Source: a bacterium
Lineage (GTDB): Archaea; Thermoproteota; Bathyarchaeia; 40CM-2-53-6
Direction: 5' to 3'
DNA length: 64,000 bases
NCBI GenBank assembly: GCA_021323995.1
Contig: JAJPJY010000066.1
Location: 10,458-74,457 of the forward strand
The stretch's first letter is position 1, and each line of letters begins with the position of its first letter. The translations under genes were made by a program, and so were the position numbers. Below the pieces are notes generated by a model. The model saw only the letters and a list, made by a program, of their open reading frames with translations. It had not been told where the DNA came from and did not search any database. Positions 18,000 to 30,493 of the stretch are shown here, piece after piece.

Positions 18000-20246
18000 T
18001 TACGAAAAATCGTATGGAATAATGCGGTCTAGGTCTCGCTTTCTCGCGTCTGACATCAGGTCTACGGGGCGCATGTTTCCGCCCAGCTTCGCCAAGACTG
18101 TCAAATGTTCGAATCCGCAATTCTCGCATCTCGCCCGAACTCCTACGCTCGTGTTGTAGCATCGTCGACACCTTGAGTAGAACGAGGAGAACGTGAAGTA
18201 TCGGACCCCCGCCTCTGCCAACTGTTTTGAAGCTCTGATTAGAGAAGATCTGTCGGCCTTGTGTCCTATCAAGAGTGGGAGTATCGAGCCTCCGTCGAAG
18301 ATTCTCTGGAGTTCTCCTTCGATAGTCGCCCTAGTTGCGATCGGAACTTTCTGGGTAAGTGGAATTACAGGTACGTCATTGTAGTACGGATATTTCTTGG
18401 ACCCTTGATAGACCACGGTTGAGAACCCGTACTTCTCGGCATCTATAGAGGCAAACCGCGCTGCGGCCTCGGGTGAGGCATGGACTCCAACTCTTATTCT
18501 GATATCACGAGCGTCAGCCTCTGCTACTGCTCGCCGCGCAGCCTCGACGATCTTCCCGGAAAAAGCTGCGCTTGATTTCTCCCAGATATCATTCTGAGTG
18601 TGATACTTGACCGCCTCCGCTAGTCCAAGCAAACCAATCTCTCCGTGTGCTCTTTGTGGGTCGTAGTAGTTTGCTCCGTTTGCTTGCCATGCTAAGAGTG
18701 GTAAGACTCCTTCAGACACCCTATCGTTGATAGCTTGTTGTTTGAGTTGCAGAGCCTTTACTGCTTCCAAGGTTCCAGCCTGGACTGCTTGTAGGAGTCG
18801 CTCGTCCTTTCTTGAGGATTCGTAGGCAGTTCGGGGTAGGTTAAGCTGGACGGTTCCCACAATGGCACCTGCGCCTTTCGTCCAGTCTCTGTCCTCGGCA
18901 AGAATCGGTCCTTCGGATGATGTCGAATAGTTGTGCTCGAATGGCTGGATGAGAAAGTTGGGAACCGAATATTTGGCTGAACTTTCGAATGCGAGGTTGA
19001 GAAGCTCGTCGGTGGATTCCATCTTACGATCGTGGGTCCGTACGATGATTGATGGATTTAGGACGGGCTGTTGACGCCCGATTTCTAGGCATGCATCGAT
19101 TATTGTTGTGAAAATCTCTTCGGCTTCTCTTGAAAAGTCACCATAGATTCCTTCACTCTTTCCGCTTGGACCAACCGCCTCGAGGTTCTGAAGATGAATC
19201 GGGACCTGGTGATCGAGGCCTATCGAGACTCGGGCTGGTATTGTGTTGGAGAGTCCATCCCAGTTGAGGTCATTGATGAACCGCGTGATTGCTTCTTGGA
19301 CCCGCTGGCGTGGAAGTCCCCTGATGAATGGTGAAAGGATGATGTTGAAGTGGTCGAAGACCTGTTCGCTCGAGACTTCACGTTCGGCGGCTCGAACAAT
19401 CTTTAGCAGGGACCCGAGAGCATCTTCAAGCGACGAGGGAGGACTAGTGGAGGGGGCTCCCTTATGGAGGAAGAGCCTCGCTTCATGGAAGAATATGCTA
19501 GGTTTCAGGAACCATGATGATGCATTTTCGAGATGTAGTTGTCCGGAAAGATGAGCGTCGACGGTGGCTCTCGGGAGACTGTTCATCAAGACGTACTCTT
19601 CAGTGACTCTTTGTCCAGCGGATTGTTGGACCCAGCTCGCGTCGAATTGTTTCTGACCAGCCTCGCGTAAGAGGACTGTTACGTCGTTAACGGGCAGTCC
19701 CAACCGGGTGAGTTTGTGGCGATACTCCTCCAGTTTTCTCTCGATAAGAATAACGTTGACCAGTTCTCGGACTAGTGGGCCGCTTAGGTAGATGATCCCG
19801 AATTTGAGGAGTCTGTCTTCAGCTTCTGCAGCGACCTCGTCTGCAAGGGTTTGGGGCATTCCCGCCTCTGTTAGGAGGGACCGGGCGATCCTGGTGCGGT
19901 CGAACTCTTCGATAGTCATGCGGGAAGTACGGACGAACATCCGCCCACGTTTTACTGCAATGTACTCCTCTAGGTCACGGGAGAACTCGACGAGTATCTT
20001 CCCAAGATCAGTGATGCTGTACTTTTTCGTGCCTTTTTCGATCGAAATCAGGCCGGCCTTCCCTAGCGTCTTGAGATGGTAGACAAATTTGCCTGCGTCC
20101 CGTACGGGATCGAGCTTGACCTCGTACATCATTTCCGTGTAAGGGAGCGGGCCTTTCGAGACGAGTAGCTTGAGAACATGCAGCCGGACGGGCGCGGAGG
20201 CAGCGTCGAGAACGTCAGAGCTGAAGCGTTCGTAGGATCGCTGCAA
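18000..20246 (-). CDS. wHTH + ATP-cone protein with NrdD-like large domain and C-terminal CxxC..CxxC zinc ribbon. Probably not a catalytic ribonucleotide reductase.
   Basis: N-terminal ArsR-like wHTH. ATP-cone (MFVRTSRMTIEEFDRTRIARSL...). HLSGQLHLEN resembles the NrdD HxHD region. C-terminus CRRCY...CENCG. Only one Cys outside the ribbon and no RVxGY glycyl-radical motif. Confidence 0.45.
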   Translation of the reverse strand: MQRSYERFSSDVLDAASAPVRLHVLKLLVSKGPLPYTEMMYEVKLDPVRDAGKFVYHLKTLGKAGLISIEKGTKKYSITDLGKILVEFSRDLEEYIAVKRGRMFVRTSRMTIEEFDRTRIARSLLTEAGMPQTLADEVAAEAEDRLLKFGIIYLSGPLVRELVNVILIERKLEEYRHKLTRLGLPVNDVTVLLREAGQKQFDASWVQQSAGQRVTEEYVLMNSLPRATVDAHLSGQLHLENASSWFLKPSIFFHEARLFLHKGAPSTSPPSSLEDALGSLLKIVRAAEREVSSEQVFDHFNIILSPFIRGLPRQRVQEAITRFINDLNWDGLSNTIPARVSIGLDHQVPIHLQNLEAVGPSGKSEGIYGDFSREAEEIFTTIIDACLEIGRQQPVLNPSIIVRTHDRKMESTDELLNLAFESSAKYSVPNFLIQPFEHNYSTSSEGPILAEDRDWTKGAGAIVGTVQLNLPRTAYESSRKDERLLQAVQAGTLEAVKALQLKQQAINDRVSEGVLPLLAWQANGANYYDPQRAHGEIGLLGLAEAVKYHTQNDIWEKSSAAFSGKIVEAARRAVAEADARDIRIRVGVHASPEAAARFASIDAEKYGFSTVVYQGSKKYPYYNDVPVIPLTQKVPIATRATIEGELQRIFDGGSILPLLIGHKADRSSLIRASKQLAEAGVRYFTFSSFYSRCRRCYNTSVGVRARCENCGFEHLTVLAKLGGNMRPVDLMSDARKRDLDRIIPYDFS

Positions 20247-20299: not shown

Positions 20300-20659
20300 C
20301 TACTCGATGATTTTCAGGTTCTTCAACGGGACCCAGCCTGTTTCATCGGTCATGTTGGTGACCCAGGCCCAACCGCTTTCGACTTTCTCTATTCTGACTA
20401 TCTCGCCCTCCATCACGGTCACTTCGCTTGCTTCGTAGTTCTGTTGTGCGACCGCACTGTCAGCGCCTATCTTGATACTGTTTTCCGGGACCCATCCTTT
20501 CTTCCCACTGTGGCTTTCACAGAACACCCATCCAGGCCATTCCACATCGATTCGCTTCACTATCTTTAGCTCGTCGCCGGTTTTCATGATTAATGGATCA
20601 GGATACTGCTTGTCGTAGCTGATGGCTACTAGCGCCATCGTCCCGGAATCGCCCTGCAA
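20300..20659 (-). CDS. Tandem SH3-like domain protein
   Basis: Two repeats of the pattern GDELKIVK..WPGWVFCES..GKKGWVPENSIK and GEIVRIEKVESGWAWV..GWVPLKNLKII. Confidence 0.45.
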   Translation of the reverse strand: MQGDSGTMALVAISYDKQYPDPLIMKTGDELKIVKRIDVEWPGWVFCESHSGKKGWVPENSIKIGADSAVAQQNYEASEVTVMEGEIVRIEKVESGWAWVTNMTDETGWVPLKNLKIIE

Positions 20660-22366: not shown

Positions 22367-22537
22367 ATGGGAAAAGTAATGGTCTCTTTGACTGATGAAG
22401 CCGAGGATCTTGTGAGGACTGAGGTAGACAAACTCTACTACGGAAGGACTGGGGGATTCAGCATTTTCTTCGAGAAGCTGATCCGCCAATACTTCAATGG
22501 AAACATGAAAGACCCTGCCGGAAAAAAGCTAAGATAG
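22367..22537 (+). CDS. Small hypothetical protein (56 aa, below the ORF-track cutoff)
   Basis: ATG-initiated ORF MGKVMVSLTDEAEDLVRTEVDKLYYGRTGGFSIFFEKLIRQYF... about 135 nt upstream of tRNA-Pro. Confidence 0.25.
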   Translation: MGKVMVSLTDEAEDLVRTEVDKLYYGRTGGFSIFFEKLIRQYFNGNMKDPAGKKLR

Positions 22538-22672
22538 CTTAGCTTGAATCCGAGCCATCCATGTCGTCTCAAACAAGATAGTTCGAGAACTAGTAGCCAG
22601 AGATGTCCCTCCGAGGTTTGCAAGGTTAATTGAATGGTTTATTTGTGCAACCAAATCCATCGCCGCTTTGTA

Positions 22673-22767
22673 GGGGCGGTGGTCCAGACCACCATAGTGG
22701 GGACAGCTTGGTCTAAGATACCTGGCTCGGGCCCAGGTGATCGTGGGTTCAAATCCCACCCGCCCCA
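22673..22767 (+). tRNA. tRNA-Pro (anticodon CGG) with a putative 19-nt non-canonical intron in the D-arm (between positions 13 and 14)
   Basis: Acceptor ggggcgg/ccgcccc with discriminator A. Anticodon arm cctgg-ctCGGgc-ccagg (U33, G37). 5-nt variable loop. T-arm gtggg-ttcaaat-cccac. Removing 22686..22704 gives a 76-nt cloverleaf with D-loop agcttggtcta. CCA not encoded. Confidence 0.6.
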
Positions 22768-23019
22768 CTATTACAATCCTGCCGTTTCCAAGGAACGGCA
22801 AAACACACATCGTTTCACATCCGATCTAGCCTTCGTTTCGGACTCTATGCGCCTCCTCAGAATCTTGAATTTTGCAAGAGACGTTATCTGATCATATTAC
22901 AGTCTCCTACCGCTGGTCGTAACACAATCTTCATCCTCGTTGTTTTCCTCTTTTCATTTTGTTAAGCCGCTTCAGGCTGGCTGGCGAACTATTCGCGAAA
23001 CGGATCCACGAGGGCACTG

Positions 23020-25351: not shown

Positions 25352-26038
25352 CTACTTGAAGATCCAACCAGTTTCCTTAGACCAGAACAACAGATCAAGA
25401 TCTGCCATAGGTATTCGTATCTCTGCGGAAAACCGTCGCAGTTTCTCCTCAATCTCTAGGTAGCGTTTCTTTGTCAAGGAAATCGGTATTTCTGGAATGA
25501 TTCCGAGACTTGCCAAGTTGCGCAGAATATGTCGGTCCAAGATTGCGAACCCTTCTCCAAGTCCTATGTTTCGGAGGAAATGGCTGGCTTCCTTGTAGCC
25601 TAGTCCCTTGACGTTCTCGACCAGCCATTCGCGCAGTTCGAAAGGGTTGTAGAAGCTCTCGATCTTCGCCTTCAGTAGAAGACCTCCATCCCTGGTAAAC
25701 ATGTCCCTAGCCTCTACAATGTACCGCGCCTTGCTCTCTCCAAACCTAACCTGGTTAAGATAGGGTCCGAGATCGGCTGGCGTGCCTTTCAAGAGAAGTT
25801 TTTCTTGTTTTAGCTTTGAGACTGCGGCCCAGCACACCTTGGCAGATGATTGAGGGGTTAGGAGACAGAATGCAAGTTCGCCGAAGACATCTTCATCGCT
25901 CCACTGCATTACTTGTTTGAATTCCGACAGCCGCTTCCCAATCGCGTCTTTCCTCTCTAGATACAACGATTGAAGCGTCTGGATCTGATCCTCAGAACTT
26001 CCGACCGTCATCTGTGCGCTAGAACTGTTTGAGAACAT
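25352..26038 (-). CDS. ogg: 8-oxoguanine DNA glycosylase / N-glycosylase-DNA lyase (archaeal Ogg-type HhH-GPD)
   Basis: HhH-GPD region GLGYKEASHFLRNIGLGEGFAILDRHI. Size of about 228 aa fits the archaeal Ogg2 family. Confidence 0.65.
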   Translation of the reverse strand: MFSNSSSAQMTVGSSEDQIQTLQSLYLERKDAIGKRLSEFKQVMQWSDEDVFGELAFCLLTPQSSAKVCWAAVSKLKQEKLLLKGTPADLGPYLNQVRFGESKARYIVEARDMFTRDGGLLLKAKIESFYNPFELREWLVENVKGLGYKEASHFLRNIGLGEGFAILDRHILRNLASLGIIPEIPISLTKKRYLEIEEKLRRFSAEIRIPMADLDLLFWSKETGWIFK

Positions 26039-26495
26039 CTGTCTTTTCCATTATTCTTGAGCAGTAGAAGCATCTTAGCCTCAGAGGATCTTGCCGTTCA
26101 ACCATGAAAGTTGGCTCTACTGGTTCTCCCGCGTTCGAGACACATGCAGGATTGGCGCATCTAACGATTCCTCTTATTGAGCTCGGGAGCTTGACACGTG
26201 TCTTTTCGGCCACCTCATAGTCTCGAATAATGTTGATTGTTGCTCCTGGTGCGATGAGGGCTATCTTGTCAACCTCTCCTGGCTTCAGCTCCCTATTTTC
26301 AACCTTGACAATGTCCTTCTTACTATCTGTCTTTGATGGAACGTTCATTGCCACACTGACAATATCCCCCTCTCCTCCGCCGATCCTGAGAATTTTCAGA
26401 ACGTCGAGGGCATGCCCGGCGGAGATATGGTCGATGACGGTGCCGTTCCGGATCTTTTTGACGTAAAGATCTTTGACACCGACCATCTTTGACAA
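26019..26495 (-). CDS. pyrI: Aspartate carbamoyltransferase regulatory subunit
   Basis: YVKKIRNGTVIDHISAGHAL N-domain and C-terminal zinc site CANPACV...CFYC. Confidence 0.85.
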   Translation of the reverse strand: MSKMVGVKDLYVKKIRNGTVIDHISAGHALDVLKILRIGGGEGDIVSVAMNVPSKTDSKKDIVKVENRELKPGEVDKIALIAPGATINIIRDYEVAEKTRVKLPSSIRGIVRCANPACVSNAGEPVEPTFMVERQDPLRLRCFYCSRIMEKTDVLKQF

Positions 26496-26852
26496 GAGCG
26501 TGAATGATCAACAGAGGTCTACACTCTTAATTCCTTCTCCACTCCAACAGCATCGTCCCGATCCAAATGTTGTTGTGACACGATAGGACGACGGTGGATC
26601 CATAAAATTTGAAGCGTGAGCGATAGGCCCATACCCCTTCCTTTCCTCTGGAAACCTTACATTCGTTGCGTCCGCAGAGTCCTAACGATTTTCGTATAGT
26701 AAATTATCGGTTGCTGTGTATAGGACAGGCTAAATGAGGAATAATCGCTAAGGACCATCAGGAGTATTTCATACAAAGAACAGATCCAACCCCACTCCAA
26801 CCATCACGAGACCGCATAGGAAACGCAGGGGTGGGCGGGATGGTTTTAGTGG

Positions 26853-26897
26853 GTCCAGTCGAAATGGTTGTACGAGAACCCTTAATTCCACTGGAAC
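26853..26897. promoter_or_regulatory. Inverted pair of ORB-like origin recognition boxes 40 bp upstream of orc1/cdc6
   Basis: Plus-strand gtccagtCgaaatgg (26853..26867). Minus-strand gttccagtggaattaagggttctc (revcomp of 26874..26897). Compare the canonical box at 48424. Confidence 0.45.
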
Positions 26898-26936
26898 TAT
26901 GATTCGAGAAATATTCTCTCTGAGGATTGTCTCGGC

Positions 26937-28181
26937 GTGTCACAGCAAGGTTTGGATCTTATCTTCGAACAAGTACTGTCTGGCGGTCAGATCTTCAGGG
27001 ACAGAAATCTTCTCAGACACGACTACATGCCGGCGAGCCTTCCTCACCGTGAGGAACAGATCAAAAGGCTTGGATCCGTCCTAGCACCGGCTCTTTCCAA
27101 AGAGCGGGTGTCCAACCTTTTCGCTTATGGAAAGACTGGAACTGGCAAGACGATTGTTGCCAAGTTTGTCCTGGACAGGTTGCAGAAGAAGGCGAGGGAC
27201 TATGGCAGGGCTGTTGATACGAGCTATGTGAACTGTCGGCTTGCTGGGACGAACTATCGAGTTATCGCTGATCTCTGTCGCGGCCTTGGCCAGGACGTGC
27301 CGTTTACTGGATTGGCGGTAGGAGAGTTGTTTGATCGGCTGCGGGAGGCTCTGCAGTCGCGCGGTTCCGCATTCCTTGTTGTCTTAGACGAGATTGACGC
27401 CTTGGTCAAGAGGAGTGAGGATGATAGTCTTCTCTACGAACTTACTCGGATTAACGAGAGACTGGATGGAGGGTGGATAGGCGTGATCGGGATTTCAAAT
27501 GATCTTCATTTCAAGGATTTCCTGGATCCTCGCGTCCTGAGTTCTTTGGGAGAGGAGGAGCTAGTCTTCAAACCGTACACATCTGATGAGTTGTACGACA
27601 TTTTGAAGGGTCGCGCGGAGCAGGCTTTCCAGCCAGATGTATTAAATGATGGCGCGCTACGCCTCTGTGCTGCCTTAGCGGCTGGAGAGCATGGCGATGC
27701 GAGGAGAGCCCTGGATCTTCTAAGAGTCGCGGGCGAGATAGGCGAACGGTCGAGAGAGAAGAATGTTCTAGAGTGTCACGTACGTATGGCGCAGCAGAAA
27801 GTGGAACACGACAGAGTGACGGAGGTCCTGTCCTCTCTGCCTCTTCATTCTAGAATTCTCCTTATCTCTGTGATGAATTTGGAGAGTTCTCGGAAGGAGA
27901 GTTCTGTAACGGGTGATGTGTACGAGGTCTATCGGGAGTTGTGCGGGGCTGCCGCGATCGAATCATTGACACAGAGGAGGATCAGCGGTCTCTTGAACGA
28001 GCTGGACATTATGGGTATCATCAACGCACGAGTCGTGAGTTTTGGGCGGTATGGTCGGACGAAAAAGATTCGTCTCGGGGTTGAGCCTCGCGTTGTGAGC
28101 TCGGCTTTTGGAACCGATGAGCTTGTGAAGGGGCTACTGGGGCATATGCCGCGTGGTCTTACAGGTCAGCACGTTCACTAG
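26937..28181 (+). CDS. cdc6: Orc1/Cdc6 replication initiator
   Basis: GTG start. DYMPASLPHREEQIKRLGSVL...FAYGKTGTGKT Walker A, AAA+ core and C-terminal winged helix. Confidence 0.9.
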   Translation: MSQQGLDLIFEQVLSGGQIFRDRNLLRHDYMPASLPHREEQIKRLGSVLAPALSKERVSNLFAYGKTGTGKTIVAKFVLDRLQKKARDYGRAVDTSYVNCRLAGTNYRVIADLCRGLGQDVPFTGLAVGELFDRLREALQSRGSAFLVVLDEIDALVKRSEDDSLLYELTRINERLDGGWIGVIGISNDLHFKDFLDPRVLSSLGEEELVFKPYTSDELYDILKGRAEQAFQPDVLNDGALRLCAALAAGEHGDARRALDLLRVAGEIGERSREKNVLECHVRMAQQKVEHDRVTEVLSSLPLHSRILLISVMNLESSRKESSVTGDVYEVYRELCGAAAIESLTQRRISGLLNELDIMGIINARVVSFGRYGRTKKIRLGVEPRVVSSAFGTDELVKGLLGHMPRGLTGQHVH

Positions 28182-28740
28182 TTGCATTGGAATCGAGGAC
28201 GGGCCTTTCCTTCCGAGAAGACTGGGCGGGACCAGAGCACCGTTAGTGGCAGTCAAGCTCGAGGGTCCCCATATGACCCGGGCTAGGGCCGGCTGGATCA
28301 TTGTGGATGGCATGGACGGGACCGAGCGGGCTTTGGAGTTGTTGTCCTCCCGATCTATGATGCGCTATCCAATTCTCCTGGGAGGAGTGACATTTGGCGG
28401 TTTCAACCTAATTGATCCTCGACGGCTTCAGAAGAGGTTCAAGACCCCGACAATAGTCGTGGTAGGGTTTAGGCCGAATAACAGGGCTGTGAAACATGCC
28501 CTCGTAAAGCACTTTCCGGACTGGAGGAAGAGATGGGGAGTGATACGCTCGCTCGGCCCGTTACGGACCGTCCGGACTATGGCGAGCGAGAATCCCATCT
28601 TCTATGAAGCGTTTGGCTGTTCGAGTAGTGTTGCCAGGAAGATCCTGACCAGTTGGGCGTTGGTGTCGAGGGTTCCTGAGCCGTTGAGGGTGGCAGGGCT
28701 GGTTGCTAGAGGATTGTTTCCGGCACAACCTCTCGGCTGA
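28153..28740 (+). CDS. DUF99 / UPF0215 family protein (endonuclease V-like fold)
   Basis: CIGIEDGPF...IIVDGMDGTE...GGVTFGGFNLID matches the DUF99 pattern. Start overlaps the cdc6 3' end, so exact start is uncertain. Confidence 0.55.
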   Translation: MVLQVSTFTSCIGIEDGPFLPRRLGGTRAPLVAVKLEGPHMTRARAGWIIVDGMDGTERALELLSSRSMMRYPILLGGVTFGGFNLIDPRRLQKRFKTPTIVVVGFRPNNRAVKHALVKHFPDWRKRWGVIRSLGPLRTVRTMASENPIFYEAFGCSSSVARKILTSWALVSRVPEPLRVAGLVARGLFPAQPLG

Positions 28741-29019
28741 ATGCGTTGGTTACATGAGATTTTAGTCGTTCGCGGGTGGTGGTGTGGACCGTCCGCGGAG
28801 GTCTTCCGTGGACGGTCGGGAGGGAGTTGGAAAGTGTTGGACAGAGAGACTGGAAAAGAGAACAAGCTGAACGATTACTTCCGGAGACGATGCGTCAACT
28901 ATGAGCGTTTTCTCTGTGACCGGGTCTGGGAGTGTGCTTTGTGTGCGAAGCAGGCTGGAAAGGTGCAGCTGGTTGAGATTTCTCTGCCGACTAAGGTTGA
29001 GGCTTTGAGGCGGAGGTGA
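28741..29019 (+). CDS. Hypothetical Cys/Trp-containing small protein
   Basis: ORF only. Confidence 0.2.
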   Translation: MRWLHEILVVRGWWCGPSAEVFRGRSGGSWKVLDRETGKENKLNDYFRRRCVNYERFLCDRVWECALCAKQAGKVQLVEISLPTKVEALRRR

Positions 29020-29023
29020 AAAA

Positions 29024-29251
29024 TTGGAGACTTTGAGAGAAGAGGAAGTTCTGGCGCTCGAGGAGGATCTGCTAGTGAGACTTGTGGAGCGGCTTACACC
29101 ATTAGTCCAACGGGCGGCGGCGGACGCAGCTAAGACTGCTATGCACCAGTTGAGACTCGACCTAATGACACATATCAGCAGGCACGAGGACACTATTCGG
29201 CGACTGAAAAGGTCCGAGCAGGCGCTGAACCACGTCCCAAGTACGCGCTAG
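29024..29251 (+). CDS. Hypothetical coiled-coil small protein
   Basis: ATG ORF with charged helical composition. Confidence 0.3.
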   Translation: METLREEEVLALEEDLLVRLVERLTPLVQRAAADAAKTAMHQLRLDLMTHISRHEDTIRRLKRSEQALNHVPSTR

Positions 29252-29374
29252 TGTCAGCGATCGGTCCTCCTCTGGAAGCAGTTGTTTGGTTAGAATATAG
29301 CGCGGCTGTCCCGTGAGAACTGAATAGGACCAAGGCTGGGCCTGAGGAAGGGTCAGATGCTCCTGACTATAGGA

Positions 29375-30493
29375 TCATCCGTGACAGTTATGGCAGAGCG
29401 GAGTCTTGTTGATGACTCCCTTAGTGGTTACGCATTCGGTGCAAAGATGTTTTCTGCAAGAGTTGCAGAGACGCATATGTTCTTCGCATACGACCGCTCC
29501 ACAGTCTTCGCAGACGGCTCTCGTTGGGCTCTCGCAGAGAGTACATTTCCGGGTCTCATCCCAGATCATCTTCCCCGTGGCGCCCTGCAGGATCTTCCGG
29601 TAGGCCCTGTTTCCAGCCTGAAGCTCAACCGTAACTATTGGAATGTGAAGAAGTCGAATGCTGGAAATAGTGACATCATCAGGATGAGCGTTCGACTCTT
29701 GCAGTAGGATATTCGCTACCTTGGCTCTGATCGATTCCTCGCCGGCAGAAGCGGGTGCTACGGTTACACTGTTCTTCATCTGCAGCTCCTGAGGAAGCTT
29801 AGGCATCGAACCGATCGAGGGCTCGATCTCTAAACAGTCGAGGAATAATCCAGAACCAGGTAGATTCTTTAATTGGCCTTCGAAAAGTCCAGCATCGCAC
29901 TCCCGACCGTCCACTCCATCGAAAACGATTATGCCGCGCGCGATTTTCTTCTTGCTCTGCGCAAGAGCGAAGTCGGCAAAGTAGTAGGGGCGGAACTCGA
30001 GCTTCGGCATAGAAGCAAGACGGAGTGCCTTTCCATTCTCAAGACCATGCGCAAGAATCTGAGAGGCAACCGCCCGGGAGACTGGTAGGGTCCCGGGGAC
30101 CCTGTCCCGTTCAGGAGGCTTGATCTTCTCGACGCGTTCCTTGAGTCTAGCGATGTCCCACAGCTCTACTCCATACTTTCTCGCCATGAACTCGGCGTCT
30201 CCCGTGAAACCTTTAGGTGAGACATAGATTCCACTTGGCAGCCCGCCATTCTTCAGTCTCATAGCGAAGCCTTCTACCTCGCGACCGTTCACTTGACGGT
30301 CGCCTTCCCAGCATTCAAAAGCGATTTTCTGGGTTTTTTTCCCCGATTTCTTTGAAGCGACTATGTCGACAACACGAGAATTCGACTGGTCCGCCTGAAC
30401 GTTTTTCTCTACATCGAATCCTTCGATGCGACAGACGTCGCAGACCATGTCGACTACAAAATTGTTAGAGTCTCGACTGGTCTGAGCGGCCAT
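29375..30493 (-). CDS. Restriction-endonuclease-like (Mrr-cat-type PD-(D/E)xK) protein with C-terminal cluster of four CxxC zinc ribbons
   Basis: N-terminus VVDIVASKK...IAFECWEG...GIYVSPKGFT resembles an Mrr catalytic core. C-terminus CTLCESP..CEDCGAVVCEEH..CNSCRKHLCTECV..CHNCHG. Confidence 0.5.
   Translation of the reverse strand: MAAQTSRDSNNFVVDMVCDVCRIEGFDVEKNVQADQSNSRVVDIVASKKSGKKTQKIAFECWEGDRQVNGREVEGFAMRLKNGGLPSGIYVSPKGFTGDAEFMARKYGVELWDIARLKERVEKIKPPERDRVPGTLPVSRAVASQILAHGLENGKALRLASMPKLEFRPYYFADFALAQSKKKIARGIIVFDGVDGRECDAGLFEGQLKNLPGSGLFLDCLEIEPSIGSMPKLPQELQMKNSVTVAPASAGEESIRAKVANILLQESNAHPDDVTISSIRLLHIPIVTVELQAGNRAYRKILQGATGKMIWDETRKCTLCESPTRAVCEDCGAVVCEEHMRLCNSCRKHLCTECVTTKGVINKTPLCHNCHG

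Follow-up and report, generated by a model that had tools for sequence, protein, structure and literature searches.

Introns of archaeal pre-tRNAs that depart from the canonical 37/38 position are well known from Crenarchaeota, Thaumarchaeota, Aigarchaeota and soil Asgard archaea, where they take non-canonical BHB, HBh' and hBH forms, occur in the D arm as well as elsewhere, and may interrupt a single gene more than once (PMC4090602, PMC8450103, PMC3293823, PMC11291895, PMC12397907). In the literature, only (alpha-beta)2 and epsilon2 endonucleases with a specific loop remove introns that are relaxed or lie outside the anticodon (PMC5829648, PMC7714728), and the (alpha-beta)2 type with its specific loop is reported to be a conserved feature of the surveyed TACK and Asgard species (PMC5829648). 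For two D-loop introns the enzymology is direct: crenarchaeal (alpha-beta)2 EndA cleaves in vitro both the D-loop intron of Aeropyrum pernix pre-tRNA-Thr2 (PMC3241643) and the HBh' intron at 20b/21 of Methanopyrus kandleri pre-tRNA-Glu (PMC5829648). The gene described here is very probably that of a Bathyarchaeota-like pre-tRNA-Pro(CGG) with one 19-nt, protein-spliced BHB-type intron at 15/16, of the relaxed HBh' type and with splicing predicted from the sequence.

The gene, its cloverleaf and the insert

The tRNA-Pro(CGG) gene occupies 95 nt on the plus strand of the 64,000-nucleotide stretch of DNA that was analysed as a whole (the window). The 5' strand of its acceptor stem, GGGGCGG (22673..22679), is the exact complement of CCGCCCC (22760..22766), and A73 is next, at 22767. 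The anticodon loop CUCGGGC (22726..22732) carries the anticodon CGG at 22728..22730 with U33 and G37, the variable loop UGAUC has 5 nt, and the T arm reads GTGGG/TTCAAAT/CCCAC, all of it as in the preliminary description, which had called these parts canonical. Excision of 19 nt leaves 76 nt that ARAGORN names tRNA-Pro(CGG), the standard cloverleaf that had been proposed, in which the acceptor stem pairs perfectly over 7 bp, the D-stem combines the pairs G10/U25, U11-A24 and C12-G23 with a C13/A22 mismatch, and the D-loop has 11 nt, AGCUUGGUCUA. The spliced product keeps the canonical cloverleaf nucleotides U8, A14, G15, G18 G19, U33, G37, the T-loop and A73. The window gene encodes no CCA, having CTA after A73; 75 of 117 relatives among the matches listed do encode it. 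From end to end, the precursor is ordered GGGGCGG UG GUCC AG A CCAC CAUA GUGG GGAC AG C UUGGUCUA AGAU A CCUGG CUCGGGC CCAGG UGAUC GUGGG UUCAAAU CCCAC CCGCCCC A.

Within this order the insert has a structure of its own. The hairpin CCAC-CAUA-GUGG and the pairing of GUCC with GGAC, both noted before, are present in the MFE as well as the centroid fold of the window precursor. A central helix of 4 bp (H) lies between the cut sites, and the 3-nt 5' bulge (AG↓N; arrows mark the predicted cut or junction) is closed by H and by the intron hairpin h' (CCAC/GUGG, 4-5 bp). On the 3' side, NN↓C16 is followed by UUGG, and G7 U8 G9 opposite gives one G/U pair at most (G9/U17); the exon-side helix h, which closes the 3' bulge in a strict hBHBh' motif, is absent. 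As there is no closing exon helix at the 3' site, the motif is relaxed and would be no substrate for endonucleases of strict specificity. The combination of H, one intact bulge, h' and a disrupted second bulge is the HBh' type in the nomenclature of Marck and Grosjean as used in PMC5829648, PMC4090602 and PMC7714728, and the insert is best read as an archaeal BHB intron of this relaxed type, with splicing predicted. Because global MFE folding recovered the full cloverleaf for neither the precursor nor the mature tRNA, comparative pair counts were relied on instead.

Table 1. Positions in the window of the tRNA-Pro(CGG) gene, the parts of its predicted intron motif, and neighbouring features.
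Feature	Position	Strand	Remarks
Anaerobic ribonucleotide reductase-like (NrdD-like) protein	18000..20246	-	NRDD domain at residues 206-738
119-aa ORF	20300..20659	-	SH3_2, E = 7e-15; SH3_1, E = 8.5e-13
56-aa ORF, MGKVMVSLTDEAEDLVRTEVDKLYYGRTGGFSIFFEKLIRQYF...	22367..22537	+	135 nt upstream of the tRNA gene; no Pfam match
Promoter-like box, TTGAATGGTTTATTTG	22630..22645	+	TATA-like TTTATTT at 22638..22644, centred about 32 nt upstream of tRNA nt 1
tRNA-Pro(CGG) gene	22673..22767	+	95 nt
5' exon, tRNA nt 1-15 (GGGGCGG, U8, G9, D-stem GUCC, A14, G15)	22673..22687	+	(near-)invariant in the 58 variants among the matches listed
Central helix H, exon strand GUCC (tRNA nt 10-13)	22682..22685	+	pairs with GGAC at 22701..22704
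5' splice-site bulge, A14 G15↓A	22686..22688	+	predicted cut 22687/22688; from relatives
Intron, ACCACCAUAGUGGGGACAG, tRNA positions 15/16	22688..22706	+	19 nt, predicted; from BHB geometry and relatives
Intron hairpin h'	22689..22700	+	CCAC 22689..22692, loop CAUA 22693..22696, GUGG 22697..22700; from covariation
Central helix H, intron strand GGAC	22701..22704	+	variants GGAU and GGGC still pair through G-U wobbles
3' splice-site nucleotides, A G↓C16	22705..22707	+	predicted cut 22706/22707; from relatives
3' exon, tRNA nt 16-73 (D-loop remainder, AGAU, anticodon arm, UGAUC, T arm, acceptor 3' strand, A73)	22707..22767	+	
Downstream hairpin, GCCGTT-N7-AACGGC	22781..22799		
Gap upstream of cdc6	26496..26936		440 nt
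Cdc6/Orc1	26937..28181		
Endonuclease dU	28153..28740		
Mrr-type restriction endonuclease domain protein	29375..30493		

Related loci and the position of the predicted cuts

A metagenome scan whose pattern required nothing beyond CTCGGG, the T arm and the 3' strand of the acceptor returned at least 119 further loci. The comparison set consists of 121 loci (L001-L121) among the matches listed, mostly on syntenic contigs; as the pattern fixes the T arm and the acceptor 3' strand, these loci sample one clade only. In many of the longer ones the genes next to the tRNA are those of the window, with nucleotide identities of about 70-84%, so that the tRNA loci are orthologous. Comparison with the tRNA-Pro genes of relatives, which the preliminary description had suggested as a check, came out in its favour: an insert of 19-23 nt is found at the same place in 113-114 of the 121 loci among the matches listed, in 58 sequence variants. 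This first insert is the only one in 25 loci, the window included, and is joined by a second insert in 89, while three loci (L012, L059, L070) have the second insert alone (all counts among the matches listed); L046, a more divergent locus of 75 nt, has no intron at all. Where the first insert is missing, in L012, L059 and L070, the sequence reads GGTCCAG↓CTTGG or GGTCCAG↓CATGG, which is the exact predicted junction, and L001 minus both introns is identical to the spliced window tRNA over 76/76 nt.

The insert varies in sequence and keeps its structure. All 58 variants among the matches listed parse as GUCC - AG↓N - stem - loop - stem - GGRY - NN↓C. Across the two helices of these variants, 99.6% of cells pair, versus 39-53% when the partners are slid by 1-3 columns, and 25 cells are changed on both sides, versus 5.7 in shuffles, 0/500 of which reached 25; kinship of the loci inflates this shuffle control and does not affect the slid-partner control and the counts of pair types in the same way. 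Helix H, which appears in the local MFE fold of 57 of the 58 variants listed, is 100% paired in them and changes by wobble only (GC to GU in 4, UA to UG in 2), as expected of a helix with one strand in a constrained exon. The hairpin h' is 99.1% paired, with compensatory changes at three of its four pairs (CG to UA in 9 variants, AU to GC in 14 and CG to UA in 2), and its loop varies freely among the variants listed in both sequence and length (3-8 nt). The first intron base, third in the 5' bulge, is A, C, G or U in relatives, next to an invariant A14 and G15; the last two intron bases likewise vary (AG, UG, AA, AC, UA, AU), next to an invariant C16. Helices that are kept while the remaining sequence is free point to an RNA in which the helices matter, akin to a splicing motif and unlike a functional element of a tRNA. 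An arrangement that recurs, with covariation, in 113-114 of the 121 loci listed is far beyond chance. Taken together, the archaeal host (see below), the canonical spliced tRNA, the covarying helices and the insert-free relatives with the predicted junction uphold the central proposal of the preliminary description, a tRNA-Pro(CGG) gene with a 19-nt non-canonical intron in the D arm, and its relaxed BHB-like arrangement is borne out by two helices kept with compensatory changes and by the missing closing helix on the 3' side.

The exact boundary was a separate matter. Excisions of 22685..22703, 22686..22704, 22687..22705 and 22688..22706 all give one identical product in the window, so that the excised segment is not uniquely defined there; the boundary is ambiguous from the window alone and its assignment to 15/16 rests on the relatives and on the BHB rule. 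This equivalence would allow for an intron of the same kind with its boundary at 13/14 (22686..22704, the position first proposed, which is not supported), 14/15 or 16/17, to which we give a slim chance, and the relatives tell the four apart. In some variants, such as L005 (AG↓G...AC↓C) and L008 (AG↓U...AA↓C), the boundaries are not redundant. Among the variants listed, excision at 13/14 would retain A14 in 53 of 58 (U14 in 5) and G15 in 41 of 58 (another base in 17), and excision at 14/15 would retain A14 in 58/58, again with G15 in 41/58 and another base in 17/58. A cut at 16/17 does as well as one at 15/16 in retaining A14 and G15 in 58/58 variants; it leaves A, G, U or C at position 16, however, and fails to give the C16 of the three insert-free alleles, whereas the 15/16 excision yields three products, and two of these match the D-loops of the insert-free alleles.

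The geometry of the motif leads to the same boundary. In canonical 37/38 introns, the first two anticodon bases are within the 4-bp central helix (PMC4090602), so that positions 32-35 form the helix and 36-37 with the first intron base the bulge; the 5' exon thus ends two bases past the helix strand and, by the symmetry of the motif, so does the intron. With nt 10-13 as helix strand, this rule places the cuts after G15 and two bases past GGAC. Among the boundaries compared, the predicted cut at 15/16 is the only one to fit four helix and two bulge bases on both strands (PMC4090602). Cut in this way, the intron would lie within the D-loop and not in the D-stem.

A mature tRNA that retains the 19 nt as an enlarged D-loop with an extra hairpin would be another way to read the insert, since its presence in more than 90% of the related loci listed could reflect a structural requirement. 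We consider this very unlikely for four reasons: (i) the conserved pairing occupies the 5' strand of the D-stem (nt 10-13) and would abolish the mature D-stem; (ii) sequence and length of the hairpin loop vary freely, as they would not in a functional element of a tRNA; (iii) insert-free orthologues have otherwise the same exons; (iv) the arrangement shows the exact spacing of a BHB motif. We know of no description of a tRNA whose D-loop bears a hairpin of this sort.

That the real gene is instead the 68-nt tRNA at 22700..22767/8, which is all that ARAGORN and the Rfam tRNA model, the standard tools, report for the unspliced sequence, or that the locus is a decaying tRNA pseudogene, is extremely unlikely, because the 68-nt call has two A/C mismatches in its acceptor stem, an aberrant D arm and a score of 30.4 bits, just above the Rfam gathering score of 29, because the 15 nt upstream of the intron are invariant or nearly so in the 58 variants listed and complete a perfect acceptor stem, because a conserved promoter-like box is placed relative to 22673 and so argues against a gene start at 22700, and because the exons are conserved across loci whose flanks differ by 16-30%, around an intron with compensatory changes. 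The box in question, TTGAATGGTTTATTTG, is found at the same upstream distance in most of the 112 loci with upstream sequence among the matches listed, and we infer that it could be an archaeal TATA/BRE promoter with a start a few bases before 22673. Another clade of loci has a different conserved block, AACCAAAGCATTTTGAATCATTGA, within the upstream 60 nt.

The hairpin downstream of the gene had been put forward as terminator-like, at 22782..22800, one base off its actual position. Relatives do not conserve this hairpin, the bases after it are AAAA and not a T-run, and a terminator scan came up empty, so it is not counted in the gene.

A second intron site, tool calls and the gene neighbourhood

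Relatives of the window gene also differ at a second site in the D arm. Of about 118 orthologous tRNA-Pro(CGG) genes among the matches listed, 89 are interrupted again, by 15-32 nt inserted between the 3' end of the D-loop and nt 26, for example L001 (7972..7852, minus strand) and L002 (4495..4374, minus strand). The inserts belong to several dissimilar sequence families, and the window gene is without one (the site would be 22718/22719), as are 24 others listed. Parsed by hand, the second intron of L001 forms a full hBHBh' motif at 24/25 (GGU/ACC, CUAA/UUAG, GA↓U, CG↓U, CUCUGG/CCGGAG); the central helix of the relatives' second intron is A/U-rich and was missed by MFE folding. From these sequences, the second site seems to be a hotspot at which introns are gained, lost or replaced. 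The locus as a whole offers a natural series for the study of tRNA intron evolution, with one deeply conserved D-loop intron and a variable second site adjoining it.

We also entertain, as a speculation with a small chance of being right, that the 15/16 intron is kept for a reason: it may order the folding of the D arm and the modification of G15, the archaeosine site of archaeal tRNAs, or it may protect the gene as an integration target. This reading draws on the presence of the intron in more than 90% of over 110 orthologous loci whose flanks have diverged by 16-30%, and on the sequestering of the 5' strand of the D-stem together with the placement of G15 in the splice-site bulge. If it were true, the adjoining region 22-26 would act as a hotspot for the repeated gain and loss of unrelated introns.

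One locus, L036, on the minus strand of WNGN01330057.1, holds a tRNA copy without a 5' exon (the break is about 60 nt upstream of where the pattern matched), in which the 56-aa ORF that lies upstream of the other tRNA genes is joined straight to the hairpin of the first intron (...CATCAGACG followed by ACCACCC...) and then reads into the tRNA remnant. A split tRNA was considered and rejected, as the sequence fused to the intron is that of the conserved upstream ORF; judged by its sequence, L036 is most likely a deletion or an assembly artefact.

Standard finders handle these genes poorly. With its intron option, ARAGORN gave only 71 matches on the 121 loci listed, leaving many loci without a call. 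It named two-intron relatives Ser(ACT), Gly(ACC), Asp(ATC), His(GTG), Arg, Thr or Glu, among others, and assigned them fictitious introns in the anticodon loop. At a permissive threshold, Rfam matched a tmRNA (RF00023) to 22673..22770 (+), with 27.1 bits against a threshold of 47 and E = 4.5e-07; this reading was discarded, as the sub-threshold match only pairs the tRNA-like ends and ARAGORN finds no tmRNA. Rfam at permissive E-values identified no other tRNA in the 64-kb window and, besides the tmRNA match, gave two chance matches. Since standard finders truncate or misname the gene, tRNA complements and completeness estimates of Bathyarchaeota MAGs will be wrong unless BHB-aware tools are used.

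Splicing of this type calls for an archaeon or another organism with an EndA-type enzyme, and both the genes of the window and the nearest genomes are archaeal. Among the products of the window are Cdc6/Orc1, a reductase resembling NrdD, HTH regulators of archaeal type, endonuclease dU and PyrI, along with a protein that combines DNA polymerase subunit-B and phosphoesterase domains, as expected of the small subunit of archaeal PolD. Only two species-representative genomes match the 3' half of the gene, one from a 'Candidatus Bathyarchaeota archaeon' and one an unclassified soil 'archaeon' MAG. The kingdom Thermoproteati, in the TACK group, includes the Bathyarchaeota, which are counted within TACK in PMC7714728.

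Several neighbouring features are of interest in their own right (Table 1). The 56-aa ORF upstream of the tRNA gene has about 80-93% amino-acid identity in 97 related loci among the matches listed and always adjoins this tRNA gene; it is a small conserved protein without assigned function. The 119-aa ORF with SH3 matches lies between the NrdD-like gene and an HTH regulator. The NrdD-like protein itself begins with a winged-helix region (DUF7347/HTH_45, below or near cut-off), and its gene is syntenic with the tRNA in many related loci. Further downstream (26019..30493), Cdc6/Orc1 is flanked by PyrI, endonuclease dU and a protein with an Mrr-type restriction endonuclease domain, and the gap upstream of cdc6 could hold a replication origin.

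Predicted splicing and comparison with known systems

The motif suggests how the precursor would be processed. The D-stem strand GUCC (nt 10-13) would pair in the precursor with GGAC of the intron, and not with its mature partner, to form the 4-bp helix H; A14, G15 and the first intron base would bulge out, the bulge being closed by the 4-bp h' of the intron, and the 3' cut site would fall two bases past H, without a closing exon helix. A broad-specificity archaeal endonuclease, expected to be an (alpha-beta)2-type enzyme with the Crenarchaea-specific loop, would cut after G15 and before C16, and the exons would presumably be joined by an RtcB-type ligase. The D-stem could then refold onto AGAU (nt 22-25), and the resulting standard tRNA of 76 nt would receive its CCA. 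Transcription from the TATA-like box, cleavage and ligation are put forward here as probable steps, and the type of enzyme is suggested by the TACK literature in general.

M. kandleri pre-tRNA-Glu(UUC), likewise archaeal, resembles the window gene in that its D-loop carries a relaxed HBh' intron (PMC5829648). Removal of this intron in vitro by crenarchaeal (alpha-beta)2 EndA is on record, as is the mature tRNA, the latter by RNA-seq (PMC5829648). The two differ in that the M. kandleri intron is at 20b/21, on the other side of the D-loop, that the same tRNA, unlike the window gene, is also interrupted at the canonical 37/38 position, and that its host is a euryarchaeon whose own enzyme is without the specific loop (PMC5829648). 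The pre-tRNA-Thr2(UGU) of A. pernix likewise has a D-loop intron, which (alpha-beta)2 EndA cuts without other factors and whose maturation is confirmed in cells; as opposed to the window gene, where the 3' bulge has no closing helix, the motif is described as a full BHB, and the tRNA, the host lineage and the exact position are different (PMC3241643).

In Caldiarchaeum subterraneum, tRNA-Thr(GGU) is interrupted at 24/25 and at 45/46, and the intron at 24/25, in the D arm, shows a presence/absence polymorphism among close genomes (PMC3293823). Together with the tRNA gene fragments of that species, this polymorphism, which is linked to an insertion element, parallels the second intron of the relatives and L036 (PMC3293823); the parallel concerns an intron that the window gene does not have, in another tRNA and another lineage (PMC3293823).

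A broader parallel is found in Thermoproteales, Thaumarchaeota and soil Asgard archaea, lineages with broad-specificity endonucleases, in which short BHB, HBh' or hBH introns occupy many positions other than 37/38, as many as three in one gene, and often escape standard finders or lead them to wrong calls (PMC4090602, PMC8450103, PMC11291895). The positions given in the accessible text of these papers (3/4, 20/21, 22/23, 25/26, 29/30, 30/31, 45/46, 53/54, 56/57 and 59/60) do not include 15/16. In the papers searched, we found no description of tRNA introns in Bathyarchaeota. The locus leaves the current understanding of archaeal tRNA splicing unchallenged. Its value is that of a well-resolved, deeply conserved D-loop intron and of a warning on ARAGORN and Rfam calls; the kind of intron is already known in related archaea, among which the present case is well supported but ordinary.
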